Part shown: positions 1 through 48,134 of the stretch, piece by piece
Position numbering within the stretch: the first letter of the stretch is position 1
Layout: each line of letters opens with the position of its first letter
From: Schmidtea nova
Lineage: Eukaryota
Direction: 5' to 3'
NCBI GenBank assembly: GCA_044892505.1
Contig: CM097882.1
Location: 255,316,001-255,372,570, forward strand
Length of the DNA: 56,570 nucleotides
Notes under the pieces: generated by a model
The model's database searches: none
Seen by the model: the letters and a program-made list of their open reading frames with translations, nothing else
Told to the model about the DNA's origin: nothing
Made by a program: the position numbers and the translations under genes

Positions 1-920
1 AGGGTTGATCCAAATGTTTCTCCATTTCTTCTCAATCTCTCTCTGATAACTTCTTTCACAAATATTTCGCTTTTGCCGGTGCGTTCCATTACCTTTTGAG
101 TTCGTGGTTCGTCTAATATCTTATCTACTAATAATTCATTAACAGGCATCTCTGGGTTTTTATAATTGATCGGTTCTTCGTCTTCATATAATTCTTCTCC
201 ATATTTACAATATTCGTTGTGTTTCAGGTATTCTCCTTCTTCTTTTGGTAATTGATATTGTATTCCACACTCTGAACATTCAGCGGTTGATTCATTTATT
301 GCATAAAAACCTTCTATTGCTAATCTGATACCCATCTTTTTATCTGCAAAGGTGTCAGTTCTCCCATTAAACTTATATTTTGGATCAATTTCTATGAATC
401 GTATCTTTGCTGGACCTGTTGAAGTTATCGTTACTATTTTGGGTTTTTCTTCTTCGTCGTTGTTCATTGTTGCTGGTTTTCTTGGTTTTTCGCATGCCTT
501 TAATACAAACTGGCATGTGGGTGAAAGTTTTCTATGTTCTGTTAGTGGATCATCGTTAATTCTCCAAGGTTCTATTTCAATTCTGCAAAATACACAGGTT
601 ACTTTATCGGGTTTCTCAATTGTCCCTGCAAAATACAACCCATCTTTGGCGAATTTTCTGTATTGCTTTTCATAGAAATTGTCTTGTTGTAAAAAGGTTA
701 TATATCTTCAGTTCTCATTTTTCAACGTTTCATCGATAATTTTGAATTTGCCATAATTCCTTTCCTTGGGAACATTCGATATTGTTCGTGTAAATTGGCA
801 ATAAATCAATTCTGAGGTAATTGGTGTTGACATCTTTTCTTTACCTCTTTTCATTAATTCGCATAAACTTTTGAATGATCTGTCATCTTCTCGTATTTTC
901 ACGATCTTCCTTTCAGTCAT
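1..920 (-). pseudogene. Inhibitor-of-apoptosis (IAP) gene, BIR + degenerate BIR + UBA-like; one in-frame TGA at 710-708; runs off the left edge
   Basis: Reading the 920..708 ORF through its TGA stays in frame to position 1: NEN*RYITF...KFAKDGLYFAGTIEKPDKVTCVFCRIEIEPWRINDDPLTEHRKLSPTCQFV (BIR with CxxC-H-C), then RTDTF...LAIEGFY...CSEC...H...C (second BIR-like), then VMERTGKSEIFVKEVIRERLRRNGETFGST (resembles the cIAP/XIAP UBA). No introns. Confidence 0.85.
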
Positions 921-1140
921 TGTATCTACAATATTTTCTCCGTTATATTTTCACAATTTTTGTTTTCTATATTTACAAAATTTTGATTTTTCTCATTTTT
1001 ATATTTGATTTTTTGGTTTTTCTCATTTTTATATTTCTTTTTAATTTTTATGTTTTTTGTGATTTTTTAATTTTATTTTGTACATTATGATACAGATACT
1101 TCATTATAATACAGACATATTTACACTTTTTCCATCTTCA

Positions 1141-2598
1141 CTACGGCTTCCTCACTTCGATAATCAGATACAGGATATTATTTACCAAATATAATGATTG
1201 TTCTGTGGTTAAATAATGTAATGCAATAAAACGTGGATTTCCTACAGCTACGTTGTAGTTTTCGATCGGCTTCCTATAAGCTGCTTCTACCTTCTTCAAG
1301 TTTGGCCTGAATACTTCCCGAACGTTGTTTTCCTTTGTTCCGATCATCATAGTTATATCGCAATCGTAGGGCCATTCTAACCAATCGTCATAATCTCCTT
1401 TACATATTTGAAAATATACAGATAAATGAGTTCCGGCTCCTAGTCCGTCTCCCGTTAGATATACTTTGAATCTGAGCTTGTAACCATGTTTCCAACTGTG
1501 ACAAGGTGGACTTGTCCATACACGTTGACCTCCTTCTCTTGCTAGTCTCAATTTCTCTGTAAATTCTGTGATTTTCCAATAGTAGGGTGTGACGGGTAGT
1601 TCTTCCATTGTTGGCAATATGCTTTCCAATCTTTGTTGGATTGTTGATATTTCTGCTATTTTCTGGTCTAATAGTATCATTTTTTGGATCATTTGTTCTC
1701 TTATTCTTTCAAAATTTCCTCTCGTATCCAACATCTCTTGTATCATGATTTTGTGAGATTTTATTTCTGTGTTGGCTTCTCCAATTACCAGTGCGGTTGC
1801 TCCAATAGCTTCCACAACGGTTCTCAAATGATTTACACTATTTTCATCTACATGCTTTTGTATTTCCTCTTTTGGTAATCTCACTTTGCAATTGAATAAT
1901 TTTAGTGGACATGCAGTAGGCTTCTTTTCGCATATTTCCCAATGTTCTTTTAGCTTCACGTTTTCTGCCATTCCACATTGATTACAATTACCTTCATACT
2001 CGTCACATACTTGCCCTTCTTCTATATTCCAATGCTCATCTTTTAACACTATCCAAGCGTCTGTTTCGTTGCAAAACTCACATATTTCCTGTCGTTGTTC
2101 ACACATTTCCTCATGACTGTCTTTGACTTTCTTCAACATTTCTTCTTCACACCACTTGCATTTGGCTTTCGTATCATCACAATTATAAAGGTGTTTGGCG
2201 ATCCATTTTATTGGCCCACTCCATACACATGGTTTATTTGGACAGGTTGTGGCTGCGTTCATTATTTCCCGATTCATTGCGATATCTGGTCTGGTTTGGT
2301 CAAATTGATCTATTATTGCTTCACCACATTCAGGACATAGCTTCTGTTTTGTTCGTATTATTTTCATCACGCAATTAGTGCATATTCGACATCCACATTC
2401 AGTTTGTCTGGGTTCTATCAATAAATTTCTACATACTTTGCATTTAAATCTTTCTTGAAATTCTGTTGGTTCTATCCGTTGTCTCTGTAGTATCTGATAT
2501 AGTTCAATCAATTCCTCTTGTTTCTGCTGATTCTCGGTCTGCATTCTAAAATAATTTATAATTTTTTCGTTTTGCTCTTTATACCAAGTTTTATTCAT
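1141..2598 (-). CDS. TNF receptor-associated factor (TRAF2/3/5-like), intronless
   Basis: RING CKVC..CGCRICTNC..CPEC; TRAF zinc fingers (CPNKPCVW..H..C; CPLKLFNC..H); coiled coil; C-terminal MATH/TRAF-C (YYWKITEF..GYKLRFKVYLTGDGLGAGTHLSVYFQICKGDYDDWLEWPY). First ATG at 2598 (ORF track uses GTG 2604). Confidence 0.92.
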   Translation of the reverse strand: MNKTWYKEQNEKIINYFRMQTENQQKQEELIELYQILQRQRIEPTEFQERFKCKVCRNLLIEPRQTECGCRICTNCVMKIIRTKQKLCPECGEAIIDQFDQTRPDIAMNREIMNAATTCPNKPCVWSGPIKWIAKHLYNCDDTKAKCKWCEEEMLKKVKDSHEEMCEQRQEICEFCNETDAWIVLKDEHWNIEEGQVCDEYEGNCNQCGMAENVKLKEHWEICEKKPTACPLKLFNCKVRLPKEEIQKHVDENSVNHLRTVVEAIGATALVIGEANTEIKSHKIMIQEMLDTRGNFERIREQMIQKMILLDQKIAEISTIQQRLESILPTMEELPVTPYYWKITEFTEKLRLAREGGQRVWTSPPCHSWKHGYKLRFKVYLTGDGLGAGTHLSVYFQICKGDYDDWLEWPYDCDITMMIGTKENNVREVFRPNLKKVEAAYRKPIENYNVAVGNPRFIALHYLTTEQSLYLVNNILYLIIEVRKP

Positions 2599-2638
2599 AT
2601 TCACATTTTTACATTTTATTTACACTGGTTTTAAATTT

Positions 2639-3274
2639 TTATAATGGTTCATCCCTTCCCGTCGAGTCAGGCTCTCGAACCGGTTCTGGAAAATTGTCTA
2701 ACCAGTTATACCATGCTCTAACTTCTTCTCGCGTCTCATTCAATCTTCTAATTTCGTTTGTTTGCCACTCCGTATGTCTTGTAAACCATTCAATTCTCTG
2801 GTCCTTTTGGATTATCATTTGTTGTTGTTCTTCCATTTTGGCAAGATATAATAAATTTCTGTTTACGCTCTCTGTTAACAAAGCTTGTTCGTTTTTCCAT
2901 TGTGCGTAGGCTTGATTCAACATCCTGCTTAATAATTCACATTGCGTTTTCCATGATAACTCTTGCGTCATTGTCTGCTGATAAACCATCGGAGCTGATA
3001 TTGATTGAGTCTGGCTATTTGTTGGTTGTTGATTTAATACGAATGTCGTTTGAATTGGGTTCATGGTTTCATCAAATAGTGGAATTTCGACTTGGTATAT
3101 CAGGTTTCTATCATCAATTGTTGGATTTTGCGTTTCATTTTCGATTACTGGGGTTTGCAGTGACCCTTCTCTTTCTCGTATATTGGTATCTTCTGGAAAC
3201 TGAGTTTGATTTAATGGTTCATTGAACGTAGGAACTGATGTTTGATAACTTTGACTCTCGTTGTTCGGATTCAT
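2639..3274 (-). CDS. Hypothetical protein, Q/N/T-rich N-terminus and coiled-coil-like C-half
   Basis: Uninterrupted ~211-codon ORF (first ATG 3274), same strand and compact spacing as its neighbours; no recognisable family. Confidence 0.6.
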   Translation of the reverse strand: MNPNNESQSYQTSVPTFNEPLNQTQFPEDTNIREREGSLQTPVIENETQNPTIDDRNLIYQVEIPLFDETMNPIQTTFVLNQQPTNSQTQSISAPMVYQQTMTQELSWKTQCELLSRMLNQAYAQWKNEQALLTESVNRNLLYLAKMEEQQQMIIQKDQRIEWFTRHTEWQTNEIRRLNETREEVRAWYNWLDNFPEPVREPDSTGRDEPL

Positions 3275-3428
3275 TTCTGTCAATAATTACACAATATTAT
3301 CATTTGTTTATCCCAGTTTTGAGGTATTCATTTTTTTTTTGGATTTTTAAATTTTTATTATACAAATATATTCTACTTTTATAATACAATATAATTTTAT
3401 ACACTATATACACTGTTCCTTCCACTGG

Positions 3429-5951
3429 TTACTCTGACAACTTGCGTTTCGACGACACTCTGATGTTCTCATCTGGCTCGTCGGTTAATATGACTTTTAT
3501 GTCTTCTTGGGTGACTTTTGAACCATTATGTGTTACTATCTGACATACGAGTGTTCTAAACATTTCTTGTGATGCTTTCTTTTTGTAAACACAGATTTTA
3601 TATTTTGTTTCTCGTTTTAATCCATTTATTCGGATTTCTCCTCCTTCTGCTCGTTGACATTTGACTGGATTATCTCCTTTAATTTGCAATTTTACGCTAC
3701 TCCAACATGCTTCTTCATTATCTGCTCCTTGTATTAATACTTGTACTGGTTTTCTCTTGTCATCCGCTTCCGTTCCTTTCAATGCTGACAGCATCAATAT
3801 CAGTAATATTATGTCTTTTATTCGAGTTTTATGTAGACATGCTGTTCGTTTTTCATAATTTGAAGTTTCTTGCTTGGGTTCATCACTTTTGTTCCCAATT
3901 TCCTCGTTATTGCTTTTTCCATCATCTTTCTCGTCTTTGTCATTGTTTCTGTTGATACTTTCATTGTCATCTTTCTTTGTTTTGTTGTTATTATTCTCTT
4001 CATCTTCATCGTCAGGCTCATTGTGATCATCAGCACCACCCTCGGTTCTGATTAAAATGTCGTCCTCGACATTTATTAATTTTATTATTTCCTCATATCT
4101 TTTGGCTATTTCATCCGCTTCGGCTTTTATATTTGCTCTCTTGGTTATTTCTTCTTTGGCGTTGTTCCAGCTTCGGTGAATTCTGCTTTCTTTTATATTT
4201 TCTTTCCATATGATGACTTGCTGATATAATTCATGTCTTTTAGATCCAATTCTTTCTTTTTCTTTTTTGTTGTTTGTAAATCTGAAATCAGGTCTTTGCA
4301 GCAATGCTTTAATCGTTTTACACATTTTCCATTTTCTTTTCATGGCTCTTTTCATTATCATATTTTCACCGTCTTCAAATCTGTCATTGACATTTATCAC
4401 TCCTTCGTGCGTAACTGGATGTAACCATTTAATCATTTTGGCTGTTGTTTCGTCTGCATCTTTGTTCACTGCATTTACTAATGGATTTGGATCTGAACTG
4501 AGTACTTCAATATCTTCTTCTGTAGCATTTGACATAATATATTTGATTATTTGATGGTTATTTGCTTGCACTGCATATGATAACACCGTTTCATTTTTAT
4601 CATCTCTTTCTTTAAAACTTGATCCGGTTCTCATCAGTTCTGCTATGAGTTTCTTGGATCCTCCTTTTTCAATTGCTACCATCAAGGGTGTTTGATCTTT
4701 CCAGTTTTTCGTGTTGGTATGTTGTTTACACTTTTCCATGAGTTTTATGATTTCAAACATTCTCTGTTCATTCCCACTTTTTATTGCGTGGTATAATGGT
4801 ATCTCATCTTTAAAACTGGTAATTGTAAGTAATATTGGTAATCTTTCTTTTATGGTATTCATCGCTTCTGTCGTTTCATTTCCTTTGGCATATTCCTCAA
4901 CCATTAAGCTTACTCCTCCCAATATTTCAAATAGATTTTTACTTTTTGACCATTCTGGCATAATTTCTTTGGTAATCTCAATGATCAATTCCATCTTTTT
5001 GCGGTGCTCCATTTTTACATCGTCAACTATCTTAGGTTGTTCAGATATTGTTGTTGACTGATTTACTTTTCTGCTCGTAGTTAATATACGATGTAGCCAA
5101 TCGTCATTTGCATTTTCTCGAAACATAAATACTTGTCCTTTTCTGGTCATTTCTTGATTTGATTGTTCTGTCATTGTTTCTCTTGTGCAATTCTCTTCAA
5201 TTTGGTGTTTCAACTTCATCGTATTCAAATCAATTACAGATCCTTTTAACAGTTTTGGTATTAAGTCTGTTCCAATAATGCATGATGCACCTAGTTGTTT
5301 TATTACTGTCAAATAAGTTGATATTTTCACATTTCTGTATTCGATGTCTGTCCATATTTTTCCAACGATATTGACAGATTCTTTGCTGCATGTTATTACG
5401 TCTACTGATGTTTTCTCGATGCATGACCATAACATTTCTGGTATCATATCGATATCTATTGCTGATATATTTGCGCCAGTGTCTATCATGGCGTCTACTT
5501 TCACACCATTAACTTCGATGTTAATTGTAAGTGTTGGTCCAGCTGGAGTTTTCATCATTGCAATTATCGTTGTTTCGGGATTATCTTCACCTCTCGCTTT
5601 TCTGGTCAACTCGCTTCCTGCAATTTTATCAACAGTTAATTTATTACTTGTTTCGATTTGTATTGGGGTTACACCGATTTCTATATCATCATCCAGCGAT
5701 TCTCCATCATATTTCAAGTGAAATGGTAAGTCAAACGGTAATCTCTCTTTTATCTCTTTGATCTTTGTTGTTAATGATACATTCATCTTTATTTCTTCTA
5801 GACTCGGAAACTGAATTTTCAATCTGCACATCTGTGGATCATCGTTTGTTTGTTCCAGTTGTTTCCATTTTCTCATGATGTCGTCAAATTGTGTTGAATA
5901 CCAAGGGCATAAACGTCTGCATTTCTCGATTTCTCTCACTATCAATCTCAT
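3429..5951 (-). CDS. Mosaic 840-aa protein: ubiquitin-like + retropepsin aspartic protease + ankyrin repeats + acidic linker + signal-peptide-like segment + FN3-like domain
   Basis: LKIQFPSLEEIKMNVSLTTKIKEIKERL..LKYDGESLDDD (UBL-like); IEVNGVKVDAMIDTGANISAI..CIIGTDLI (retropepsin); IPLYHAIKSG, DQTPLMVAIEKG, NETVLSYAVQAN (ankyrin); KDIILLILMLSALKGTEA; INGLKRETKYKICV (FN3-like). The frame is open upstream to 6047. Confidence 0.75.
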   Translation of the reverse strand: MRLIVREIEKCRRLCPWYSTQFDDIMRKWKQLEQTNDDPQMCRLKIQFPSLEEIKMNVSLTTKIKEIKERLPFDLPFHLKYDGESLDDDIEIGVTPIQIETSNKLTVDKIAGSELTRKARGEDNPETTIIAMMKTPAGPTLTINIEVNGVKVDAMIDTGANISAIDIDMIPEMLWSCIEKTSVDVITCSKESVNIVGKIWTDIEYRNVKISTYLTVIKQLGASCIIGTDLIPKLLKGSVIDLNTMKLKHQIEENCTRETMTEQSNQEMTRKGQVFMFRENANDDWLHRILTTSRKVNQSTTISEQPKIVDDVKMEHRKKMELIIEITKEIMPEWSKSKNLFEILGGVSLMVEEYAKGNETTEAMNTIKERLPILLTITSFKDEIPLYHAIKSGNEQRMFEIIKLMEKCKQHTNTKNWKDQTPLMVAIEKGGSKKLIAELMRTGSSFKERDDKNETVLSYAVQANNHQIIKYIMSNATEEDIEVLSSDPNPLVNAVNKDADETTAKMIKWLHPVTHEGVINVNDRFEDGENMIMKRAMKRKWKMCKTIKALLQRPDFRFTNNKKEKERIGSKRHELYQQVIIWKENIKESRIHRSWNNAKEEITKRANIKAEADEIAKRYEEIIKLINVEDDILIRTEGGADDHNEPDDEDEENNNNKTKKDDNESINRNNDKDEKDDGKSNNEEIGNKSDEPKQETSNYEKRTACLHKTRIKDIILLILMLSALKGTEADDKRKPVQVLIQGADNEEACWSSVKLQIKGDNPVKCQRAEGGEIRINGLKRETKYKICVYKKKASQEMFRTLVCQIVTHNGSKVTQEDIKVILTDEPDENIRVSSKRKLSE

Positions 5952-6050
5952 GTTTGATATATTTGCACTATTTTTTATAACCCATTTTAGTAATTCAGTT
6001 GTTGTTTCACATTGATTTCCTGCATTCTTGATTAGGTTATTGATTAATCA

Positions 6051-6529
6051 TTCGGTCTTTGACGTCTCTGTTTGTTTTGATCTTTCGAGCTTCGCTGATT
6101 TCCTTTTTTCTTCCGACTTTTGATTCATTTTCGTCATTTCTTCTATGGTAATGGTTAACAATCTTTGTGCCATTTGATCGTTATGGATTCATCCCATTTC
6201 TCGTCCATGCTACATGTATCATCATTGCTTCTTCTTTCTCTTCTTTGTCGGTTATATTTCTCCACAAACTTCTTCTTTTCTTCTCCCTCCATATCTTTTA
6301 CTGAAAATTCATATACATTTCCCTTTCTTTCAATTTCAACGTCTGATAATTCGGTTATCATTTCATTTACTTTTCCTTCGATATTCTGTTGTAGTTGCAT
6401 ATTCATTGTTATTACTTCTTTTTCTTCTTCCTGTAAATTATCTTCTACATTTGGACTGGTTATTTTCTGCTCTTCTTTTAATAAATTATCTTCTGAGTTT
6501 GCACTGGTAACTTTCTGATTCTCCTCCAT
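6051..6529 (-). pseudogene. E/K/N-rich low-complexity coding remnant, probably a disrupted N-terminal extension of the 5951..3429 ORF
   Basis: ORF 6529..6155 overlaps a second open stretch (6188..6051) that is in frame with the mosaic ORF and separated from it by one TGA (6050-6048). Confidence 0.4.
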
Positions 6530-6946
6530 TTTTCTTTATTTATCAGCTTTGTTTCTTTGTTATTTCCTTTCGTCGTTTCTTTATAGATTTGACTCTTTAT
6601 CTTTCGACTTTACGAACTTGGTTGGTTTGGTAATATTGCCAATTTGTGTTTAATATCGATTGTTGATCTCTCTTTTATCTTCAATTGGGTCTTCTTTGAT
6701 TTATTTTCTTTTACTTCTTTCCTTTTCAATTAGACTTCTTTTTCTTCTTTTCTTCTATATATACCTCTTCAATAACTGATTGATTTGACTATCTCTTGGC
6801 TTGGCTTTGATCTGTTGGACAATCTAAATAAAAATATCGCTTCTTCATCGACGCCATTTACCCCCCTTTTACTCTGAGCTCAGATTTTAAATTATCTATA
6901 TCTCGTAATAATTATCTATATGGTCGTATCAGTTATCTATACCCTG

Positions 6947-6983
<37 letters not shown>

Positions 6984-6985
6984 TA
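6947..6985. repeat. (AAT)n microsatellite
   Basis: Direct reading. Confidence 0.9.
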
Positions 6986-7211
6986 ACAATACTAATACTA
7001 TAATAACAGTATGATCATACTCATCTCGGCATTCAAAAAAAATGTCTTGTTCGTTATCTATTCATGGCCATTATTTTATTTCCTAAGTACTACACCTTAA
7101 GTATTCGCGTTCAATGTTTTTCTCTGTCATAACAAAATTTTTTCTGCGCAGTTTTATTTAATTCTATCTCTCAAACGTTTTCCTAAATTTCTCAACAATA
7201 TCCACAAACAT

Positions 7212-7614
7212 TGGACTCTCAAAGTCTCTCACATACATGAACTCTCAAAGTTTATCAATTATCTGGACTCTCAAAGTCTCTCCCAGAGCGCTCAATTATC
7301 TGGACTCTCAAAGTCTCTTAATGGACTCTCAAAGTCTCTCAATGGACTCTCAAAGTCTCTCAATGGACTCTCAAAGTCTCTCAATGGACTCTCAAAGTCT
7401 CTCAATGGACTCTCAAAGTCTCTCAATGGACTCTCAAAGTCTCTCAATGGACTCTCAAAGTCTCTCAATGGACTCTCAAAGTCTCTCAATGGACTCTCAA
7501 AGTCTCTCAATGGACTCTCAAAGTCTCTCAATGGACTCTCAAAGTCTCTCAATGGACTCTCAAAGTCTCTTACTGGACTCTCAAAGTCTCTTACTGAACT
7601 CTCAAAGTTTCTCA
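7212..7614. repeat. 21-bp minisatellite (ATGGACTCTCAAAGTCTCTCA)
   Basis: 11 perfect units at 7321-7551, variant units at 7300, 7552, 7573 and 7594, and degenerate copies back to ~7212. Confidence 0.97.
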
Positions 7615-8652
7615 ATTATCTCGGCCGTCTTCAATTGTTCTCTTTATGCTATTTAATCACTCGTTTCCCTATTCTCAAATTTTTAAATAAATTCGCTGTT
7701 GCTGACTGTTTTTCTCAAATTGTTCTACTACTTCTCAATTACGAATTTATTCCTTAACTACCATGGTAGAATCTTTTCTTGTTATATTATCATCTACTAT
7801 TATCATCGAAATTCACTTTTTACTCTTTTGACTTGCTAAAATCTGCATCTGATTTTCTCAGCAACTTTCTCTTTACTCATGTTACTGTCTTCTACCTCAG
7901 TGTACCAATCATGCCTTGGCAAACTGGTGTATAAGATGAACATTACGGGTTTGACCCTTTCACCTAATTCAAAATCGTAAAATAATCGCATCAACTAGTT
8001 TCGCCATTTGTGATGATCAGTCACAAACGAAATTTCGCCAACATATGCGATGGATATCCTATTCTACTCTCTTTCCTCAAGGTGATCAAGTTTTTCCCCG
8101 TTTGTTGTCTGCTAATTTTTAACAACAAAATATTGACGTACTATCTTTTGATAGCTCTGTTAAAACTTGGCGTACTATCTTTTGATAGCTCAGTTATGAA
8201 TTTGTGAACTATTTTCTCGTTTCGACTCAGGCACTCATTTATTTCGGAAGATTCTCCCTATAAAATCAACTTCTATAACTCTACTTATTGCTCGTCCTAA
8301 TACATACATATTTATATAAAAATGATCAGTATAATAATGATAATCAATATAATAATGATAATAAGGAAGATTTATAGTAATAGAATTCGGATCGATATAA
8401 TAATGATGAGGAGGATTTATAAGAATAATAATAAAGAAAATTTGAAAAGAACAGAAAAATAACTTTGTCACAAATTCCCATTTTCCTAATGTTTAATTTT
8501 TCGGCATTAGCCGTTACTTGTTATGTTTTACGCGCATCTCAGTTATTAATTACCTAGTGTTCTTTGTTTAGTTAGTTTTCACGACGGTTTGGAGTACTGG
8601 ATGATCGACGAAGTTCAACACGACTAAAACGTTTTATTTCGAACGGCATTCT

Positions 8653-9135
8653 TTACGAACAAAATACGACGATTTTGTCTTCAATCGTCTGTTTGCAGAT
8701 TACGCATCTCTTTATTTCTCCATAACACGGCTGGCAATAACACAAATGCACACATGGCATGAAAAAAATGTTCGCTTCTCTTAGTCGACAAATATAACAT
8801 CTTTCGAACGAATCGATCTGTTGATTCATCGATCTCTCCAGCCTGTCCATGATTTTATCGATTTTACCAATCCATTCCTGTATTTTCAGATCGAAATTCG
8901 GATTATTCAGTCGCAATCGTTGTAATTCATAAACCGTTTCTAACGAAATATCGTTTGTTGCTCCCACAATTCCTGCAATCACTACCAGATTCTCAGGTTG
9001 TGGTCCAGGACTCAACAATAATTCATCTTTTATTCCATTTACTCGTTCGAGTTTCTCGCTCAACACCTGTAATGGGTCATTTTTAAAATCGAAAAACAAC
9101 TCGATTCGTAGTAAAATATGCTCAATCGATTCCAT
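8653..9135 (-). CDS. Small protein with C-terminal RING-HC finger of the IAP/MDM2 type (putative E3 ubiquitin ligase)
   Basis: CYICRLREANIFFMPCVHLCYCQPCYGEIKRCVICKQTIEDKIVVFCS at the extreme C-terminus; ATG start, intronless. Confidence 0.85.
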   Translation of the reverse strand: MESIEHILLRIELFFDFKNDPLQVLSEKLERVNGIKDELLLSPGPQPENLVVIAGIVGATNDISLETVYELQRLRLNNPNFDLKIQEWIGKIDKIMDRLERSMNQQIDSFERCYICRLREANIFFMPCVHLCYCQPCYGEIKRCVICKQTIEDKIVVFCS

Positions 9136-10280
9136 CTAAAATATTCATGATGACTGGTGTTTATAACTTTTTGAATTAACCATTCATTATAATTTGAACG
9201 AAAATAAATAATAAAAACTTCAACATCTATGTACACGAAATTTTTTTTTTACAATTTTTATATATTTTTGTATTTTTTTTCAAAACTACACTAACAGAGT
9301 ATTCAGCCATTTTTATACATATATTTTTATATTTTTATATTTTTATATTTTTATATTTTTATATTTTTAACTAACAGAATATTCAGCCATTTTTATACAT
9401 ATATTTTTATATTTTTATATTTTTTTTATATTTTTATATTTTTATAATTTTCTCCATTCGTCCATATTCCATATTTTTCGAATAATATAAATAAAATAAT
9501 CAGCCATTATGTACATAATTTTTATGATTTTTTATATATTTTTTTTTATATATACTAATATTTTCTACATAAAAAATAATTAAACATTTATTTACACAAT
9601 TTTTTCATGATTTTTACACTTTTTATCAATTTTAAAATAATTATATTTTTATTCACAGTATTCGCAACCTTTTGGTAATTTTTCGTTTACTGAAAGCAAT
9701 TTTTATATACTCGAATATTTATTTTCTAAGTGATTTGCGTGAACTCTATCCCGTATCGTATGATCATATAACATTTCCTTTTATCAGGTTCCTAATTTTG
9801 TGCATCTCAAAATTTTCGTATTTGCGCTAAGTCTCACGTTTTCTTGTCTGATTCTGTATCATTATATTCGTTTTTAAGATGTTGTTAAATATTATTTTAT
9901 GATTTCTAAAGATTTTAGAGTTATTCCCGATTTCGATTTCTGAATTGAGTTGCGATCATCATTCCAATATCACCATGCATCATTCCGACTTCAACAAGCT
10001 AATCTTTCCCAACATTCAAACTTCAAACTCATTAGACTATATCATTCATTCTCCACCGGTATTATTATATTAATTAAAACAAACAATTCACGCATTGCTC
10101 CATTTTCGCCGTTATTTCTTTTAGACCCGATACTTTCCATGTCCCCTTTTGCCAACAAAACAAAATTACAGGGGTCATACCTCAGTCATTCTCAATCAAC
10201 CAAAATAACACCAATATCGTCAGTAATAATAATGACATCAACAGTACACTCATGATAATAACAGTAACAATAATAATACC

Positions 10281-10345
<65 letters not shown>
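10281..10345. repeat. (AAT)n microsatellite
   Basis: Direct reading; lies just before an assembly gap. Confidence 0.9.
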
Positions 10346-10346
<1 letters not shown>

Positions 10347-10380
10347 TTTAATAATTATACCAAGATGCTAGTAGTACTAC

Positions 10381-10516
10381 NNNNNNNNNNNNNNNNNNNN
10401 NNNNNNNNNNNNNNNNNNNNNNNNNNNNNNNNNNNNNNNNNNNNNNNNNNNNNNNNNNNNNNNNNNNNNNNNNNNNNNNNNNNNNNNNNNNNNNNNNNNN
10501 NNNNNNNNNNNNNNNT
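10381..10516. other. Assembly gap (N run)
   Basis: Ns. Confidence 1.
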
Positions 10517-11179
10517 TACCCAATATGTTTTCTTATATATTATTACGTAATAATTATAATAAGAATATAATAACTCAGTCTTATTTTTATATTATTTGAC
10601 CAAATTACGGTTTCTACTGTTAAAATGATAATAATAATAATTCTGATATCTATACGATCATTAATACTCAGTGTTACTGCTTTCTTGGATCAAAATTTCG
10701 TAATTTCTTCAATTTTTTAATTTCTTAGCGGCGATTTTCTACACTTTTTGCGGATTCCGGTGTCATATTCTATCTTTCGAGGTATTTTCCACTTGCCGGT
10801 GCTGCGTACTCACTTTCTACGCTCTATGGACGTTATTTGAACCATTTTACGATTATTGGTTGTTCGTGGGATTTATTTGTCGCGATTTGGTATTTTGACT
10901 ATTTTACCCGTGATTTTCTTAGACTTTTGACCCATTCCGGCTCAACTTTTTATCCTATGCTATGTTTGATGTTTATTCATATTAAAGACACTTATTCTAC
11001 GCTCTGTAGTTATTATTCGTTCTCAATTTCGATCATTGACTGCTCCTGGGGCTTAAAAATCGCGTTTTGGCTTTCAATTTTATCATTTTCGCGGTGATTC
11101 TGTTTGAAATTTTCTCGATTTTTTCCGATTTTTCGATTTAAATCTCGTTTAAAATGCTATTTATGATTCCAATCATAAT

Positions 11180-11443
11180 NNNNNNNNNNNNNNNNNNNNN
11201 NNNNNNNNNNNNNNNNNNNNNNNNNNNNNNNNNNNNNNNNNNNNNNNNNNNNNNNNNNNNNNNNNNNNNNNNNNNNNNNNNNNNNNNNNNNNNNNNNNNN
11301 NNNNNNNNNNNNNNNNNNNNNNNNNNNNNNNNNNNNNNNNNNNNNNNNNNNNNNNNNNNNNNNNNNNNNNNNNNNNNNNNNNNNNNNNNNNNNNNNNNNN
11401 NNNNNNNNNNNNNNNNNNNNNNNNNNNNNNNNNNNNNNNNNNN
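11180..11443. other. Assembly gap (N run)
   Basis: Ns. Confidence 1.
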
Positions 11444-11605
11444 ATCAAACATAATTTTCCGCTGTTTGTGTCAAAGTTTTATTTAACAGTTTGTTGATAT
11501 TTTATGAAAACTTTCATTAAATCTCGCGCGAACTCGTTTAGTTGTTTTTCGATTTTTTCAAGCAAAACAAACTCAAATCCCGGCTGAGCCCCCAAATTTT
11601 TATAT

Positions 11606-11841
11606 GGTGGGTTGTTGATCGTCAATATGACCTTGACGTTTCTATGGCTCTCATCAACAACTCAACACATAAAACATTTAAACTACCATCTTGTTACCCG
11701 TCACTATGTAACGTTGGTACTGTAACAAGTGGGTGGGTATTCGCAATCAGTGAGCGTCGTCAATACGAAACTATGATTGACCGAATATCTCCTGGGTCCA
11801 AGGGCTACCGATAGAAGGTTTAATGCCCATTTTGTCCCTCC
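11606..11841 (-). repeat. Conserved block A, copy 1 (inverted relative to 25881-26116 and 26426-26648)
   Basis: Reverse complement matches GGAGGGACAAAATGGGCAT...GATCAACAACCCACC with few substitutions. Confidence 0.95.
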
Positions 11842-12899
11842 TTTAATGATTGATCTATAAGCATTCAACAAAATTTTATCGGAAATTCAACATAAACACT
11901 CTACACAACTATAAATTCATTATTGCATCCAACTAAATTATTTCGAGCATCAAAAACACTAATATAACCCTATTTTTACCAATATTGCATTTTATGATAA
12001 TTAATACATAAAATATTATATTTTTATAGAAAAATTTTAATCTGCATTTGAAATTTAAGAAAAATTTTAATTATTACCGTAATTTAATCCAGTTAAGAAA
12101 TAATAAAAATAAAATTTCCGTTTGTTTAAAATTGCTAATTTAATCAAAAGGACAAATTTACTCAATTTAAAAATCATATTAATTTTAAATGTAATTTTCT
12201 GAATTTTTCAATAAATTGATAAATTAACAATTTCTATAGTTCAGATCAACAAGAAATGGACCTCTCCAGAAACTACGAAACCAGAGGAAAATTCTCCCAC
12301 CCCAAACGGGTCAATCCAATTAGAACTCGAGCTCCTATGAAGCAAAATAGCCCGCTCTACCAACCAAGTAAAATTTTGATTATTTCAGAATTATAATTTA
12401 TTTTGAACAATTTTAGAAAATTTCTTGAAGAGAATATGTTGGAACTGGCCCTTCAAGCATTGTAAACCGGAAAAAATCCTTGCCGGGGACTCTTATCCCT
12501 CAAACTGAATTTTTATCAATAAATCTTTAGATAAAAATTTTTTTCGTCTTTACTCTTTTTCGTTTGAGTTTTTATTATTTTTATGAAATTTTTGTAAATT
12601 AAAAATAAACTGTAATGTAAATGGCCTATTTGGCTGGGTAAATTCAATTTTATATGGTAGGTTTGAATGATAGAAATTTTTGTATGGTTTTTCTGGATGT
12701 ATGTTGCCGACTAACATAACTGTGTAGAATTTTCAGTATGGTTTGCTTGTGTGTATATAACTATTGAATGCTAATAAATGGTACTGTGTATGTGTGTATA
12801 TTGTATTTTAAATATATGTTGCTTGTGTATTAGTATGGGAAATGTTATTGAATGAAATGGATGTAATATTTTGCAAATAGGGATGCATTATGATTTTTG

Positions 12900-13030
12900 N
12901 NNNNNNNNNNNNNNNNNNNNNNNNNNNNNNNNNNNNNNNNNNNNNNNNNNNNNNNNNNNNNNNNNNNNNNNNNNNNNNNNNNNNNNNNNNNNNNNNNNNN
13001 NNNNNNNNNNNNNNNNNNNNNNNNNNNNNN
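12900..13030. other. Assembly gap (N run)
   Basis: Ns. Confidence 1.
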
Positions 13031-13907
13031 NAATTTTTATGAAGTAATATAATAATAAAATTTCCAATTTTTATATTATAAATTTTTATAATACTTTTTA
13101 TAAATTTTAAATTTATAATTTTATGAAAATAATATAATAATAAAATTTCTAGTTTTTATAATATATATTTTTATATTCGAATTTTTATATTTTAAGTATA
13201 TATATATATATATATAGTAAAAAATTTTTCCTATAAAATTTTAAATTTTGGATTTTTTAAAATGATAAAATTTTCAATATAATAATAACATTTTCGATTT
13301 AAAATTTTTATGGGTTTCAATATAAGTTTTGATTTATAAATTCTTAGGAATTTTATAAAATGACAAAATCTTTTATATCATAACAATATTCGGAGAATTT
13401 TTGGTTTACAATTTTTCATTATAAAAATTTTTTCAATATAATAAAAAGTAAATTTTTATTTTTTGATCGAAACGAAATCCACATCATAATAAATTTCTCA
13501 TCCATAGATTTCGAAATCTAAATAAGCATTTAATCTAAAAATTTTTATATGCTAAATAAAAATAAAATAAAAAATAAGTTATAAATTTTTCAACGAAATT
13601 TTTTCGACATCGAGTAAAGTTAATTTCGGTTTCCTTGTTATTCCATCGGATTTGAGCATTAATTCGAACGATTTACTTTTTGATATCGGTTTTTAATATT
13701 CTGGCTCTTGGATGAGAAGAAAATTATTGTGAAGGTGAAGGCGAAGGACGAGTAAAATGTTTTTGCATAATTATTTTTCCTAATGGAAAAGATGTTGCTG
13801 GAGAGATTGGTTTTCACGTTTTCATGTAGTATTAATTTTCAATATATTAAAAATTATAAATTCGGATAAGCTACATTTATTATAAATAAATATCATTAAT
13901 ATAACAC

Positions 13908-14085
13908 CTTGCCTTGGGCCAAGCCACTGTTCCCCAGTTGGGATGAAGTGATCTTGGATGGTTAGGCTATTCACCTGAACTCGGACAATGGACTGATCGA
14001 TTTACGTATCGAACCAGCGATCCGCTCAGGCTACTTCCACCCGATCGGCGCAAGGCCAGACACAGGCTTCAGGGGGTAAGGAAGT
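13908..14085 (-). repeat. GC-rich conserved block B, copy 1
   Basis: Inverted copy at 17838-18015; much higher GC than the flanks and by eye better conserved than them. Confidence 0.95.
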
Positions 14086-16404
14086 AAAAAAAAAATTAAT
14101 ATTTTTTATTTATTTATTCTCTTTATAATATATATTATTGTGACTTTAAACGGCAATTTGCGACAAACAAAAATTAAAAAATTAAAAGTAAATATTTTAA
14201 TATTCAATAACGATAGCATAATAATAATAATATAAAAATTATAAAAACATTATCGGTACGGGGAAATCGAACAGGCATGGTGTTCGATGACCCCGCGCCA
14301 ACAAAAGAATAAGACTTACGAATAAATTTAGAGGTCTTCTTGCATAAAATTTTAAAAAATTTTTTTTTCACAAATTCTGAATAGATTCCATTTTGATGGC
14401 GGTATATATACCGTCGATTTTCGTCACCTTCACCAGTGTAATAAAACAAATTGTTCTAGAATTTTCCATTTAATTTTTTCTAAATTAATTCTAATGATTT
14501 TCCGAAAATTAAATCCATATTTTTGTGTAATAATTTTTTACAAAACACAAATAATTTATTTTAATCCAAAATTTTTATTTTTGAATCGAAATTTGTTCGA
14601 TTTAATTTAATTTACGATATTTCAATCAATATTAATTCTTTTTATTGTTAATGTGAAATATTTTGCTAACATCACAATTTTCGGCTAAAATTCTGTTAAT
14701 TTTTTCTGCATGAAGGTTTTATAACACAATTCCGTTGTTTATGGGTATTTTCAATGGGTTTTCCGCCTTATTCTAACTTTTAAACGTTCTTCTTTTGATG
14801 GTATTTGATTTTTCTCGAGGTTTCAATGTAAGAGCTCTCAGACTCACAGCTAGCGCGTTCTCTACTGGTTGATGTGTTGTGAGTTCACTTCACCTTTTGT
14901 TGTTTTTCACTTAATTGCTTGGATTTTTAATGGGTTTTTGGGTTAAAACTGAATCTTGCGCGCTCTCTACCTATGAGGTTATCGTTTGTTTAAAACAATT
15001 TGTGGTTTTTGCCCAACATTTCCTAGAATTAGACAAATTATTTTATATATACATAACCATCATTTTATAATTTAACCCTTCCAAAAATAATCCTTATAAA
15101 CCTTCCTTGCAAAATACTACATCCATTCCATTCAATAACATCATCCATATCTAATAACACATAAAAAAACTTATTTATCTATAATACACACACTACATCA
15201 TTTAATTCAATAACACCTATCTGCATCATACATCCAGAAATTCTCATAAGCACTCAATATAACCCATTTATCACTAAATTATTTATTTCATCCAGCATAC
15301 AATCACATGCAACCATCACAATAGGAGAATTTATCTCAAATGGACAATAGTTTATACGCACGCATTTGTAGCCACCACATTCCACTTCACCAAAACGTAT
15401 CACATACCTCATCCATACATTTTCATCATAAATCAGAATCCTTTACTTCACAATTTCCACAGATCAATGTAACCAACAGTTCATATTCGCTTTTCACATT
15501 ATACCATAAACATTTAATGATATCACACGAATAATCTACATTGACTAATTTATCAAATCTTTAGTATTCAAACAGAACTAACGAAATGCTTCGCGCCTAT
15601 TTATTAGCCATTTTAAATAGAAATTTTTTTTATTTTTAATCACATCTACGTAACTGTATAAGATACATGAAATTTTGAAAAATTTGAGAAAATTGTAAAA
15701 TTTTATTAACTACAAAATTTTTGAATCACCACTACTACATGTAATATCTCTTGCATCGACATAACGATTCAAAATGAAAAATTAAATATCCATCAAAGAG
15801 AACCAAGCAACATGTAGATCCATTAATTCCTTGGAGCTGGGCGTGAATTCAAATAGATTGATCCGTCGTTATAAGATGACTTGGCTGTATAAAATCGACG
15901 CGTAAAATATGACATAATCATATTACGAACTTACATTAAATTGTTTTGAGGGAAATAATTGACGAACTCGAGGATATCCGTGAAAGAAAATTGAACTGTC
16001 TCGGTTGATTCTGAGAATACGAAGCCTAAAGTTCAACAAGGTGGATTGAAATTATAAATAAGGAAAAGTAAATAATACTAAATTCAATTACTCGAATGAG
16101 AAGAAGCGATTGGGAATGTTTGAATTTTCTGCCTAAAAACTAACACCTAAAATCAATAAAATATAATATAGGAAACAATATTACTATACTGGGATTCGAC
16201 CAATTAGATTTCATTAATTTTGGTTTCCGTCTGGCAATATAGAGTTTTGAAAAAGTTAAATGCAAATTATCTTGGAAAAAAACGAAAAAGGCGTGTAAGA
16301 ATTAAATTCCTAATGTAATATTTCACTTAGAATTTTAAAATAAAATAACATTTTAATTTTAGGTAGAAATTTAAAGGTAAAATTAATATAATATTGGTAG
16401 AACC

Positions 16405-16672: not shown

Positions 16673-17837
16673 TTATGTTTGAGTATGAGCTTGAGAATAA
16701 ACTAAAATTTGTGAATATGTTTGTGTCTGTTGATAATATAATGTATAGTGATTGTGTTGGGCAAAAACTACAAATTGTTTTAATAAAGCGATAACCCCAT
16801 AGGTAGAGAGTGCGCAAGATTCCATTTTAACCCAAGCAACCATTAAAAATCCAAACGATTAAGTGGAAAACACCAAAAGGTGAAGTGGACTCAAAACACA
16901 TCAAGCAGTAGAGAACGCGCTAGATGTGAGTCTGAAAGCCCTTACACTGAAACCTCGAGAAAAATCAAATGCCATCAAAAGAAGAACGTTTGAAAATTAG
17001 AATAGGCGGAAAACCCATTGAAAATACTCATAAAAAACGAAATTGTGTTATAAAACCTTCAGTGCAGTAAAAATTAAAAAAATTTTTTAGCCGAAAATTG
17101 TGATTTTATCAAAATATTTCACATTAACAATAAAAAGAACTAATATTGATAGAAATATCGTAAATTAAATCAAATCGAACAAATTTCGATTCAAAAATAA
17201 AAATTTTAAATTAAAATAAATTATTTGTGTTTTATAAAAAATTATTACACAAAAATATGGATTTAATTTTCGGAAAATCATTAGAATTAAATTAGAAAAA
17301 TTAAAAAGAAAATTCTGGAACAATTTGTTTTACTACACTAGTGAAGGTAACGCAAAATCTATGGTATATATACGGCCATCAAAATGGCAATAATCAGAAT
17401 TGGTGGAAGTTTTTGTCGTAATTCAAAATTTTGCAGAATTTAAATTTTTAATTTGTGAAAAATTTGTAACCAGAGAAGTATTACTTGATCCTGAAATATT
17501 ATCCCGCATCGTGGAACATTAATGTAAGGAGTTATTTTTATTTATTTTTTTGGATGAGATCATCAGTCGTCATGCCCGTTGATCATCTCATGCCCAGTAT
17601 TTTGGTTATCTTTATATTTATTTATTTATTTATTTATTATTGATTTAGTTTATTTATATGAAATATCAATTTTTTAGATTGAATTAATTATTCCATTGAA
17701 TTATTACTTATTGAAATTTATACGAAAATGTTAATTTTATATGTTTTTATCAAGATACTGTCACAAATACCCATATTAGATTAATATTTATTTTAAAATA
17801 TAGGCTGTAGAAAGAGAAGAATAACTAATTTTTTTTT

Positions 17838-18015
17838 GCTTCCATACCCCCTGAAACCTGTTTCTGGCCTTGTGCCGAGCGGGTGGAAGTAGCCTGAGCG
17901 GATCGCTGGTTCGATTCGTAATCGATCAGCCCATATTTCCGAGTCCAGGTGAATAGCCCAAACATCCATGATCACTTCATCCCAACTGGGGAACAGTGGC
18001 TTGGCCAAGAGCAAG
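17838..18015 (+). repeat. GC-rich conserved block B, copy 2
   Basis: Reverse complement of 13908-14085. Confidence 0.95.
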
Positions 18016-18377
18016 TTGTTATACTAATGATATTTGATTTATAATAATGTAGTTTATCTGAATTTATAATTCTAACATATTCATAATTAAAGATTGATAC
18101 CACATATAAACGTAAGGACGATTTTCTCCAGTAATGCCTTTTCCATTATGAAAAATAATTTGTGCAAGAATATTTTACTCGTCGTTCGCCTTCACTCTCA
18201 CAACAACTGTCATCTTATCCGAAAACGCAAGTAAAATGGAAGCTAATATTGAAAAGAGAATCGTTTGAAATAATGCTCAAAGCTGGTATAATGATCACGA
18301 AATGAAACGAATTGTGAAGACAAGTATTGATTGATCTGAATTAAACCTCATTTATAGTCTAAATAATTTTCTCCAGT

Positions 18378-18541
18378 GAACCTTGTTTTCGGGAGCCTGA
18401 AGTTCCTAAGTAAAGCGTCTCGAAAAATTCACGCGCGCTTTAGTTGGGAAATTCATGCTCGAACGAAACCGAAGTTCATTTTACTCGATGTCGAAAAATA
18501 TTCATTGAAGAATTTATGACTTATTTTATTTTTATTCTTAT
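18378..18541 (+). repeat. 164-bp perfect direct repeat of 24890-25053
   Basis: No differences found by eye from GAACCTTGTTTTCGGGAGCC to TTTATTCTTAT. Confidence 0.95.
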
Positions 18542-18673
18542 TCAGTATATAAAAAAATTTTTAGATTGAATTCTTATTTGGATTGCGAAATTTGTGGATA
18601 AAAATTTATTATTTCGTTTTGATCAAAAAATAAAAACTTACTTTTATTATATTGCAAAAATTTTTATAATGAA

Positions 18674-18980
18674 CTAGTAAATCAAAAAAAAATTCTTTTT
18701 TCAAATCCATGCTTTATGCGAGCAGAACTCCACTTGGCTGAGAAATTTTTTTTTGTTATATTTTGTAAAGGGAAAATTACATTTTTCGTGTGTCCTCAAA
18801 AAAAATTTTTAAAAAAAATTTGTTTTCAAATTTTTTTCCATTTCCATGTATTGTCACCGGAAGTGAGCAAGTGTGCAAAATTTGAAGTGAATCGGTTGAG
18901 AGAAAAGCACTAAAAAATTGATTTGTAATTTTGTGGCACACACATATATATATAGAAAGCAACCTTATATAAAGCATGGA
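18674..18980 (-). mobile_element. Non-autonomous Helitron/Helentron-like element
   Basis: Minus strand starts TC and ends CTAG; 12-bp inverted repeat TCCATGCTTTAT (18706-18717) / ATAAAGCATGGA (18969-18980); (CA)/(TA) microsatellite; no TSD. The empty T-rich site is seen in the paralogous arm near 13405-13420. Confidence 0.65.
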
Positions 18981-19474
18981 AAAATTGTAAACCAAAAAAT
19001 TTTCCTAAGAATTTATAAATCAAAACTTATATTGAAACCCATAAAAATTGTAAATCGAGAATATTATTAATATATTGAAAATTTTTATCATCTTGTAAAA
19101 TTCCAAATTCGAGATTTTATAGGAAAATTTTGCGATTAATATATATATATATATATATATTAAAATATTAAAATTTGAATTCAAAATGTATATTATACAA
19201 ATTTAGAAATTTTATTATTTTCATAAAATTATAAATTTAAAAATTTATAAAAATCATAATAAAAATATTATTATTATTTTAATTCTGAAAATATTTTATA
19301 TATAAATATATATTTCTTTATAAAATACCCCCCACGATATCTCAAAATCATAATGCATCCCTATTTGCTAAAACTTACATCCATTTCATTCATTAGTAAC
19401 GTTCACATATAACACCACATAAAAATCCATTCATTCATCAACACACATACTATATCGTTTCACTCAATAGTACC

Positions 19475-22400: not shown

Positions 22401-22993
22401 GTGAGATCATAAGCTGTGCAGAAGCCATTCAGAGAAAATATAGTGAAGATATAACAACTGAATTTCCGCTGCAAATGGTTATGGTAAAGTCAATGCTTCA
22501 CGATGAAATATCAAAAATATCATCTATACGTGAATTGGCTGACCTTTTAATAGTAAAATTGTCAACTATAGCTGCAAGCGTTCCACAAGTGATAACAGCA
22601 TTGTTATTGTTTGTTACATTACCTGTTACTGTTGCATCAGCTGAACGTTCTTTTTCGAAACTTAAAATAATAAAAAATTATTTACGAAATACCATTGGTA
22701 AAGAATGTTTAAGCGACCTTGCAATACTTTCTATTGGGGCAAAAGCGGCTGGAAAAATGGAAATGAAAAACATCATTACCGATTTTGCCAATATGAAATC
22801 AAGGAGGAAAGATTTCACTATTTAAGTTCGGTTAAGTTTTAGTTTCGTTTTTAAGTTATGTTTATCTTTATTTAATTTTTTGTTTTTAAATATGATATAT
22901 GAAATAAATATCTATTTAATATGTGAAGCTTTATTTTTTTAAAAAAAAACATTCTTTTGCGGGGGGGGCCCAAATTTTGAAGTTCCGCCACTG
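19475..22993 (+). mobile_element. Full-length hAT DNA transposon (ZMYM1-like transposase type)
   Basis: TIRs CAGCGGCGGAACT (19475-19487) and AGTTCCGCCACTG (22981-22993), 12/13 match; perfect 8-bp TSD ATAGTACC (19467-19474, 22994-23001). Confidence 0.97.
20258..22825 (+). pseudogene. hAT transposase split by two frameshifts (poly-T run ~20776-20791 and ~22140-22150)
   Basis: IIMDTTQD, GQGYDGANVMSG, HCAAHNLNL, PTRWA and the dimerisation motif TLPVTVASAERSFSKLKIIK are spread over ORFs 20258, 20664 and 22208. Confidence 0.93.
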
Positions 22994-24453: not shown

Positions 24454-24723
24454 GTAACCGTTGCTGTTGTCAAGGCCTCGACAAAAAATTCAAATGTTAT
24501 AATTTTCAGAATTTTAATAAAAATTTTATAAAATTTAATAAAGCAAGATAGACATTAGGTATAGGGGATAAATAGAGTTTAATTAAAATTTACTAATGAC
24601 AAAAATATACAAATTTAAAAAGTATAGAAAATAATAAAGTTTGATTAAAATCATCGAAAATTCAAATACCCCGAATTATGTGATAGATCAAAGATTTTTC
24701 GACCTCTGAATTGAGTTGGCGAT
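24454..24723 (+). repeat. Diverged direct repeat of 16405-16672
   Basis: See partner. Confidence 0.85.
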
Positions 24724-24889
24724 AGTATACTTGAGGTTAAACTGGCAATCAATAATGAATGTGTAAAAATCCCTGTGATTTGAGATAAATTTTGTGTACA
24801 ATAGTTGGTTATGAAAAATCGATAAATGTTCATCGATCAAAATGGTTTTATCTTATGAATTTAAAATGAATATTTTAAATTAAATGTTA

Positions 24890-25053
24890 GAACCTTGTTT
24901 TCGGGAGCCTGAAGTTCCTAAGTAAAGCGTCTCGAAAAATTCACGCGCGCTTTAGTTGGGAAATTCATGCTCGAACGAAACCGAAGTTCATTTTACTCGA
25001 TGTCGAAAAATATTCATTGAAGAATTTATGACTTATTTTATTTTTATTCTTAT
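24890..25053 (+). repeat. 164-bp perfect direct repeat of 18378-18541
   Basis: See partner. Confidence 0.95.
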
Positions 25054-25083
25054 ATTGAATGTGTTATGAATGTATAATTTTAG

Positions 25084-29467: not shown

Positions 29468-31029
<1,562 letters not shown>

Positions 31030-38141: not shown

Positions 38142-39727
<1,586 letters not shown>

Positions 39728-48084: not shown

Positions 48085-48134
48085 CCGAAAAAATCGAGCC
48101 GATTCACGCGGTGACAAGAAATCAGCATAGAAAG

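Follow-up and report, generated by a model that had tools for sequence, protein, structure and literature searches.

The cassette of co-oriented genes at positions 1 to 9,135 of the window, by which we mean the whole 56,570-nucleotide stretch of Schmidtea nova DNA that was analysed (CM097882.1, positions 255,316,001 to 255,372,570), is, with good confidence, the coding interior of a 23.5-kb LTR retroelement of the Burro family that has lost gag, env, RT, RNase H and integrase, that probably depends on a Burro1-like helper for packaging and copying, and whose TRAF, IAP and neighbours are under purifying selection, likely since they keep the expressing cell alive. The Burro section of PMC6431247 describes Burro1/GYPSM1 and Burro-2 to -4 of Schmidtea mediterranea as giant LTR elements of gypsy type that carry MATH/TRAF, BIR, ankyrin, RING, Smc-like coiled-coil and Ubl domains and whose accessory ORFs are interchangeable with polyprotein domains. 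The set of TRAF, BIR, ankyrin and protease domains is already on record for Burro1/GYPSM1 in that section; a preliminary description of this DNA knew of no combination of TRAF, IAP and ankyrin-protease.

The element has the hallmarks of an LTR retroelement: direct LTRs with TG...CA ends, a target-site duplication (TSD) and a primer-binding site (PBS) after the 5' LTR. The 3.4-kb 5' LTR occupies 11605..15018 on the minus strand, with the 4-bp TSD TTTC beside it at 15019-15022. The 18-nt PBS, presumably tRNA-Pro-like, lies 10 nt from the LTR end (11577..11594, minus strand); it is conserved across the genome's 2,072 exact LTR-PBS junctions and in other Burro lineages. Next comes a leader (6536..11576, minus strand) that contains AAT runs and, at 7238-7678, a tandem array of 21-nt units. 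The preliminary description had proposed looking for a second LTR and a TSD to the left, and the 3' LTR does lie there, from L011:4467 to L014:3586 in the adjoining DNA, split by a nested 26-kb sister copy with the TSD GATG. The two LTRs differ at only 8 of 3,240 positions (0.25%), and the insertion is recent. No polypurine tract was found before the 3' LTR; the site holds a GC-rich, hairpin-like stretch, as in the helper.

The RT, RNase H and integrase that were likewise to be looked for on the left are absent, and the element is non-autonomous: helper gag, env, RT and integrase had no match at E<0.01 in the 11 stretches tested, and only PR, Ubl and ANK pieces of the helper polyprotein are retained. 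Contrary to the preliminary description, the window does contain RT and integrase frames (49206-54641), which lie outside the LTRs of the cassette element. The missing RT and integrase, the recent multicopy insertion and the cis ends in common with an autonomous partner are those of a non-autonomous, LARD-like Ty3/gypsy element. Descent from Burro is indicated by LTR, leader and polyprotein pieces homologous to an element of Burro1 architecture and by the MATH/BIR/ankyrin/RING cargo, an assignment made by architecture and homology to elements of this genome.

The 16.6-kb interior holds nine ORFs. The co-oriented frames noted at the outset are real, with spacers of 154, 40 and 220 bp among the left four, and the actin gene of the window has an intron as claimed, a short GT-AG one. 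The frames at 6155-6529 (124 aa) and 3429-5951 (840 aa) are one gene with a frameshift near 6173-6179 in the window copy, and the RING frame sits 2.1 kb upstream in the leader. This RING ORF (8653..9135, minus strand; 160 aa, zf-C3HC4_3 E 2e-11) is of IAP type without a BIR and is common to the helper and other Burro lineages. The united gene (3429..6535, minus strand; ~1,040 aa) encodes a Ubl, a retropepsin (DTG; E 1e-5), an ankyrin domain (Ank_2 E 2e-10) and an FN3-like part. A 211-aa ORF (2639..3274, minus strand) has no Pfam match, and its C-terminal half is 33-38% homologous to the pre-TRAF ORF of other Burro lineages. The TRAF (1141..2598, minus strand; 485 aa) is full-length, with a RING in which Cys replaces His, as in planarian TRAFs, TRAF zinc fingers (zf-TRAF), a coiled coil and a MATH domain (E 9e-23). 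The IAP (1..920, minus strand) runs out of the window to the left, where its C-terminal RING stops after 250 bases (L011:9251). It has one canonical BIR with CCHC ligands (E 6e-18), a degenerate second BIR and a UBA-like part; its best PDB match is BIRC2 (cIAP1; E 6e-13), and the window copy has an in-frame stop at 708-710. Four further ORFs lie left of the window: a 527-aa coiled-coil ORF (CC527, L011:7569-9152), a 192-aa ORF (L011:6936-7295) shortened to 119 aa in this copy, the 275-aa Cys-rich/TM ORF o275 (L011:5797-6624), which is a candidate TNF-receptor-like protein, and the 297-aa coiled-coil/TM frame o297 (L011:5007-5693), cut short in this copy. Four frames are broken in the window's young copy, the nested neighbour has one frameshift, and the TRAF frame is open in 8 of 13 copies. 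Protein-database searches with a longer Ubl-PR query, the IAP and o275 gave no matches, a word-limited result that is weak evidence.

The element is multicopy and a giant Ty3/gypsy element of the Burro type, a kind that the preliminary description had brought up. Copy numbers were taken from exact patterns (first-look candidate counts of 2,440, 2,398 and 1,295 are not copy numbers): a TRAF 26-mer occurs at 1,172 genomic places and a helper RT 26-mer at 185, the latter designed from four copies and perhaps an undercount. Forty junctions, hand-picked among the first 100 listed, comprised 14 of window type, 12 shorter cargo types, 6 of helper type, 3 IN-ankyrin remnants and 5 others. TRAF and IAP were absent from 12 of the 26 cargo-type copies, indicating that they are dispensable for transposition.

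The helper is likely an element whose polyprotein (frames of 4,990-5,018 aa) runs gag-CCHC-MATH-Ubl-env-PR-RT-RH-IN-ANK-FN3, which matches the Burro1 order gag-CCHC-MATH-Ubl-env-PR-RT-RH-IN and its ~5,000 aa. It thus has the autonomous gag-env-PR-RT-RH-IN polyprotein that the window element lacks. Its termini are identical in kind to those of the satellite, it makes 4-bp TSDs, and PBS and leader are common to both; LTR ends and leader are 85-96% identical despite a coding dS of ~1.0-1.7. In a leader tree, two cargo copies fall inside the helper-type clade (100/100), and helper monophyly is rejected (p-AU 0.002). Mobilisation of the satellite in trans by this helper is very probable; other Burro lineages carry the PBS and 5' terminus in common and so could help too. 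A Bcl-2-bearing gag-env-pol family (13.7 kb, 1.07-kb LTRs) was rejected as helper, having no LTR in common. The ankyrin-protease gene arose from the helper polyprotein by deletions: its frame corresponds to helper residues 554-653, 1380-1582, 2742-2886 and 3887-4455, and three deletion junctions kept the reading frame. Protease and ankyrin are therefore not the separate capture first proposed. A Ddi1-type origin of the Ubl-protease was discarded, with a PDB E of only 0.08, whereas the helper protease is 62-72% identical to that of the cargo. A comparison of six cargo ORFs and of the IAP's BIR part with four helper copies gave no match; the helper carries a MATH, an ankyrin and a BIR-less RING ORF of its own.

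TRAF, IAP and most neighbours are under purifying selection among copies. The pN/pS of shared variants lies at 0.07-0.36 over these genes (TRAF 0.09, IAP 0.16, CC527 0.07, o275 0.14, Ubl-PR-ANK 0.28), shared and private variants differ (Fisher p 3e-7), and the result stands at kappa 8; o297 showed no selection (0.86 in 9 copies). Of 9 starts, 7 have a T-rich YAG no more than 8 nt away, as against 16 of 336 other ATGs, for a motif defined post hoc after inspection of the data; in other lineages a YAG was counted by eye at this distance for 8 of 12 starts. This pattern suggests, with somewhat better than even odds, that each ORF would be expressed by splicing to an acceptor directly before its ATG. 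Four contig runs of unspecified type, aligned to positions 1-6900, revealed nothing about splicing or expression. The retained protease may free the ankyrin domain. By analogy with B-IAP of Burro1, a BIR+RING protein that reportedly protects stem cells against caspase-mediated death (PMC13465017, in its passage on Lee et al. 2026 Dev Cell), we lean towards IAP and TRAF acting against death of the caspase/JNK type; an anti-death cargo, as originally suggested, is plausible.

It is possible that o275 is a TNF-receptor-like membrane protein. Its predicted topology (signal peptide, Cys-rich domain, single TM, tail) fits the single-CRD TNFR type, and an atlas look-up placed Grindelwald, TACI/BCMA and Fn14 on top (0.78-0.80), a level of 0.8 that a third of shuffled proteins also reach. 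None of nine o275 copies matched a TNFR family in Pfam, no TNFR chain was found in the PDB, and the predicted fold of the Cys-rich part is unusable (pLDDT 41-49). When the tail of o275 was modelled in complex with the cargo MATH, the score was 0.60, versus 0.00 for the best control, which is weak support: scores at or below 0.60 came from just 5 of 78 solved complexes and from all four passing mismatches. At least 49% of contacts agree between runs, the partner pLDDT is at least 41, and the model may be reproducing TRAF-peptide complexes that have already been solved.

The TRAF block has homologues among the accessory genes of other Burro lineages and hence was likely inherited within Burro, not freshly captured. 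The satellite TRAF shares 35-37% identity with other Burro TRAFs versus 28-30% with host-like ones, and it joins the element MATHs (95.8/94; long branches) in a tree of 28 of the 51 rows of a first tree that was a quick fallback. Four high-copy TRAF families lie in Burro elements at the sites examined. The BIR-IAP, seen neither in the helper nor in three other lineages examined, may be a separate capture, which lends something to the idea that a host TRAF-IAP-IkB set was newly captured through mRNA and damps NF-kB. That idea also draws on Bcl-3 as best fold match of the ankyrin model (E 8e-6, 17% identity) and on divergent RHD genes reported in a planarian (PMC13563047); an RHD genome search, run without a positive control, gave no matches and was given no weight in view of that report. 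Such a capture is nevertheless improbable given the affinities of the TRAF, the polyprotein origin of ankyrin and protease, a Bcl-3 lead of only four-fold over generic ankyrins, and no IkB-family chain among 58 sequence hits of the ankyrin domain. The lack of introns, earlier read as a mark of mRNA capture, does not show it, because low-copy host-like TRAFs are also intronless single open frames. A host gene cluster or an endogenous DNA virus, suggested by gene content only, is refuted by the LTRs with their PBS and TSD, by the nested insertion and by the more than a thousand near-identical copies, and its probability is negligible.

A different possibility is a pure parasite with passenger genes, where the selection signal is a legacy of an autonomous ancestor and the cargo is by now in decay. 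While broken frames in young copies and the common deletion variants without cargo are consistent with this, variants shared among present satellite copies post-date the helper split and are strongly synonymous-biased, and the deletion junctions stayed in frame, so that we judge it unlikely. Less unlikely, though still doubtful, is a two-part element in which the satellite contributes a survival module of receptor, TRAF and IAP; the helper would have lost this module and need it, or the host would now rely on it. The cargo is missing from the helper copies while other autonomous lineages hold orf211-TRAF-CC in cis, the cargo is under selection, and the atlas matches and tail-MATH model of o275 would fit; against it, the helper retains its own MATH, ankyrin and RING, TRAF and IAP are optional among satellites, and o275 is blank for TNFR in Pfam and PDB, with an atlas score level that a third of shuffled proteins reach. 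In its fullest form, which we regard as slightly more doubtful again, capsid, envelope, RT and integrase would come from the helper. A satellite six times as abundant would encode the complete receptor-proximal part of a TNF survival module (a TNFR-like membrane protein, a TRAF and a cIAP-like ligase), produced by splicing of a single transcript and selected since the shared host cell, perhaps a stem cell, is kept alive.

The reading that we prefer, a cargo-bearing Burro satellite mobilised by a helper, differs from known systems in several respects. Defective oncogene-transducing retroviruses (REV-T with REV-A) are replication-defective, carry a host-derived survival or signalling gene and are spread by a helper; they are short-lived, exogenous and have one such gene, whereas the satellite is an old endogenous lineage (dS >1 from the helper) with a multi-gene block. 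Unlike Burro1-4, it lacks gag, env, RT and integrase and has TRAF and IAP as separate full-length ORFs. B-IAP is likewise a BIR+RING protein of a Burro element; here the BIR-bearing IAP is in the satellite, and the helper copies examined have only the BIR-less RING ORF. LARDs, DNA between two LTRs that an autonomous partner moves in trans, have interiors that are seldom longer than 10 kb and may be non-coding (PMC6431247); the satellite would move alike, with a larger interior and mostly selected ORFs. New here is a satellite that outnumbers its helper and carries a BIR-IAP and a full TRAF absent from it, plus possibly a TNF-receptor-like membrane protein. The literature searched, including the Burro section of PMC6431247, yielded no non-autonomous Burro class and no TNFR-like cargo, which the primary Burro papers and their supplements may describe.

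Part of the planarian TRAF/MATH expansion reported in PMC6109357 is suggested to be element-borne. Loss of coding sequence is what one expects of a non-autonomous element; in this satellite a signalling block of several genes has stayed under selection long after RT and integrase were gone, and the satellite is now more numerous than its helper. Cargo and replication genes are separable by knockdown, which, given the report on the Burro1 IAP in stem cells, would allow a direct test of who benefits: the element, the helper or the host.

The cassette at window 1-9135, on the minus strand, comprises a RING ORF, a 124-amino-acid (aa) piece, an 840-aa retropepsin-ankyrin frame, a 211-aa ORF (orf211), a 485-aa TRAF, and an IAP whose frame extends beyond the left window edge. 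The named relatives of the TRAF are from Dendrocoelum and Dugesia, which makes a triclad planarian the likely source of the genome. The short spacers noted among the left four genes in the preliminary description measured 154, 40 and 220 bp. In other copies the 124-aa and 840-aa frames form a single gene (ubiquitin-like/retropepsin/ankyrin, Ubl-PR-ANK), which a frameshift near 6173-6179 divides in the window copy; the window IAP also carries a stop at 708-710. Approximately 48 kb to the left was examined as five separate stretches (negative coordinates count leftwards from the window). The reverse transcriptase (RT) or integrase (IN) expected there was absent from all five, and helper gag, env, RT and IN queries had no match at E<0.01 across 11 stretches from five cargo-bearing copies. 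The second LTR and target-site duplication (TSD) that had also been sought were both found, together with the IAP RING and four further ORFs of 527, 192, 275 and 297 aa, lengths as in a neighbouring copy.

The 5′ LTR occupies window 11605-15018; beyond it come a spacer of 10 nt and a primer-binding site (PBS) of 18 nt. Its 3′ counterpart spans -5033 to -34415 because a sister copy of 26 kb is nested within it (-33156 to -7186; L014:4845 to L011:2314 in the left stretches), and the window element has a net length of 23.5 kb. The TSDs are TTTC for the window copy and GATG for the nested copy. Both insertions are young, since their LTR pairs differ at only 8 of 3,240 and 7 of 4,537 positions, respectively. 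The spacer (window 11595-11604) is AT-rich, and a hairpin-like stretch (near L011:4467) lies where a polypurine tract would be expected; both have similar counterparts in the helper and another lineage, and may reflect unusual end processing or plus-strand priming.

Elsewhere in the window, a plus-strand solo LTR of the same family (16756-26117, TSD ATTG) is interrupted by a hAT-type element (ORFs 20249-22825). Two actin genes form a perfect 1,486-bp inverted pair (29537-31022 and 38174-39659), with an intron of ~58 nt checked in one of them, and at 48045-56350 a pair of conventional gypsy gag-pol sets point in opposite directions. A separate, many-copy 13.7-kb gypsy family (stretches L024-L025, L029-L030 and L034-L035) encodes gag-Bcl2-env-pol in one ~3,070-aa frame, with a second ORF of 828-898 aa; L035:4921-8292 holds a chimeric 1,124-aa frame matching Cpn60, HECT, HSP70, ubiquitin and DUF1759.

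The cassette proved to be multicopy, an exact TRAF 26-mer occurring at 1,172 places versus 185 for helper RT. The LTR-PBS junction matched 2,072 places in the genome. Among 40 junctions hand-picked from the first 100 listed, 14 had the window arrangement, 12 were cargo variants without TRAF and IAP, 6 led into the long polyprotein, 3 into an IN-ankyrin remnant and 5 into other sequence. Two of the 40 copies (L055:6528-7979 and L070:1993-3444), both lacking TRAF and IAP, have a 484-aa secreted or transmembrane ORF after the ankyrin gene.

The helper polyprotein is ordered gag-CCHC-MATH-Ubl-env-PR-RT-RH-IN-ANK-FN3, as described for Burro1/GYPSM1 (PMC6431247), and many of 150 scored matches to its MATH sit in 4,990-5,018-aa frames. 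Burro1 is reported to be under PIWI control (PMC8532177). The first cargo gene, Ubl-PR-ANK, is collinear with helper residues 554-653, 1380-1582, 2742-2886 and 3887-4455 at 40-62% identity; read from sequence, it is the helper polyprotein after three in-frame internal deletions and loss of gag. Although synonymous divergence in these regions is ~1.0-1.7, the LTR ends and the leader retain 85-96% identity. A tree of 37 leader rows put two cargo copies within the helper-type clade, and helper monophyly was rejected (p-AU 0.002). Co-packaging would produce such continuing exchange of cis sequences. The window cassette belongs to a genuine, recently inserted copy of a Burro derivative that probably depends on a helper and whose co-packaging we infer. 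Among papers listed by literature searches, which did not take in Grohme 2018, Jurka 2007, Lee 2026 or their supplements, none dealt with non-autonomous Burro elements as a class or with cargo resembling a TNFR.

The combination of TRAF, IAP and ankyrin-protease, for which the preliminary description knew no precedent, is present, but MATH/TRAF, BIR, ankyrin, RING and Ubl had already been published in Burro elements (PMC6431247). Three other Burro lineages (L121-L140) have a MATH-less polyprotein, after which come an orf211-like ORF, a full TRAF and coiled-coil ORFs, ordered as in the window element; their TRAFs are 35-37% identical to that of the window. Relative to the helper, these lineages are 92% identical in RT, 35-40% in gag and 53-57% in PR; in one copy (L138), PR was joined independently to ankyrin without RT-IN. 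In a MATH tree of 28 rows, the element MATHs clustered with two database proteins and separately from host-like TRAFs (95.8/94), with long branches, and a quick tree recovered the same element grouping (SH 92). The intronless state had been read as a sign of mRNA capture; it is uninformative because low-copy host-like TRAFs (L109-L111, clustered on contig 2) are likewise single open frames, of 417-486 aa. The BIR-bearing IAP was not found in the four helper copies and three other lineages examined. In its C-terminal half this IAP is similar to the RING ORF of the leader (27%), its best PDB match is BIRC2/cIAP1, and the genome's top BIR matches are mostly 399-aa element frames.

Evidence for selection on the cargo came from pN/pS, calculated against one real copy from variants common to at least two copies, with 9-27 copies per ORF. 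Values were 0.09 for TRAF, 0.16 for IAP, 0.13 for orf211, 0.07 for CC527, 0.08 for o192, 0.14 for o275, 0.28 for Ubl-PR-ANK, 0.36 for RING and 0.86 for o297. The synonymous fraction was higher among shared than among private variants (385:282 vs 327:416, p = 3e-7). With the transition bias set to 8 the signal held, although it was weak for RING and lost for o297. These data indicate purifying selection on most of the cargo; the often-broken frames (open in 8/13 TRAF, 17/21 Ubl-PR-ANK and 6/7 IAP copies) and the optional TRAF and IAP count against it. With regard to expression, a T-rich YAG lies within 8 nt of the ATG at 7/9 starts versus 16/336 other ATGs, a motif defined after inspection; other Burro lineages have YAG within 8 nt of the start in 8/12. 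The ORFs are likely resolved by splicing or spliced-leader trans-splicing.

The ankyrin model has pLDDT of ~90 over the repeats, and a fold search placed Bcl-3 first by a narrow lead; IkB chains were absent from 58 sequence matches, leaving NF-kB control as a candidate function. Left of the window, the ORF of 275 aa (o275) has receptor topology. Its nearest entries in the atlas, at 0.78-0.80, are Grindelwald, TACI/BCMA and Fn14, which offer a lead only; a TNFR domain was unconfirmed by Pfam, PDB and folding. A prediction placed its tail on the cargo MATH with a score of 0.60, versus 0.00 for the best control, a result graded weak: of 78 solved complexes just 5 scored at or under 0.60, as did all 4 mismatches that passed. 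Contact agreement was at least 49% and partner pLDDT at least 41, and the model may have memorised solved TRAF-peptide complexes. It is rather improbable that this is a two-part element in which the satellite provides a receptor-TRAF-IAP module beside the helper. An anti-death role for the window element's cargo is likely, because a Burro1 BIR-RING protein is reported to guard stem cells in planarians against caspase-mediated death (PMC13465017, citing Lee et al. 2026) and planarian TRAF knockdown to increase cell death (PMC7586133).
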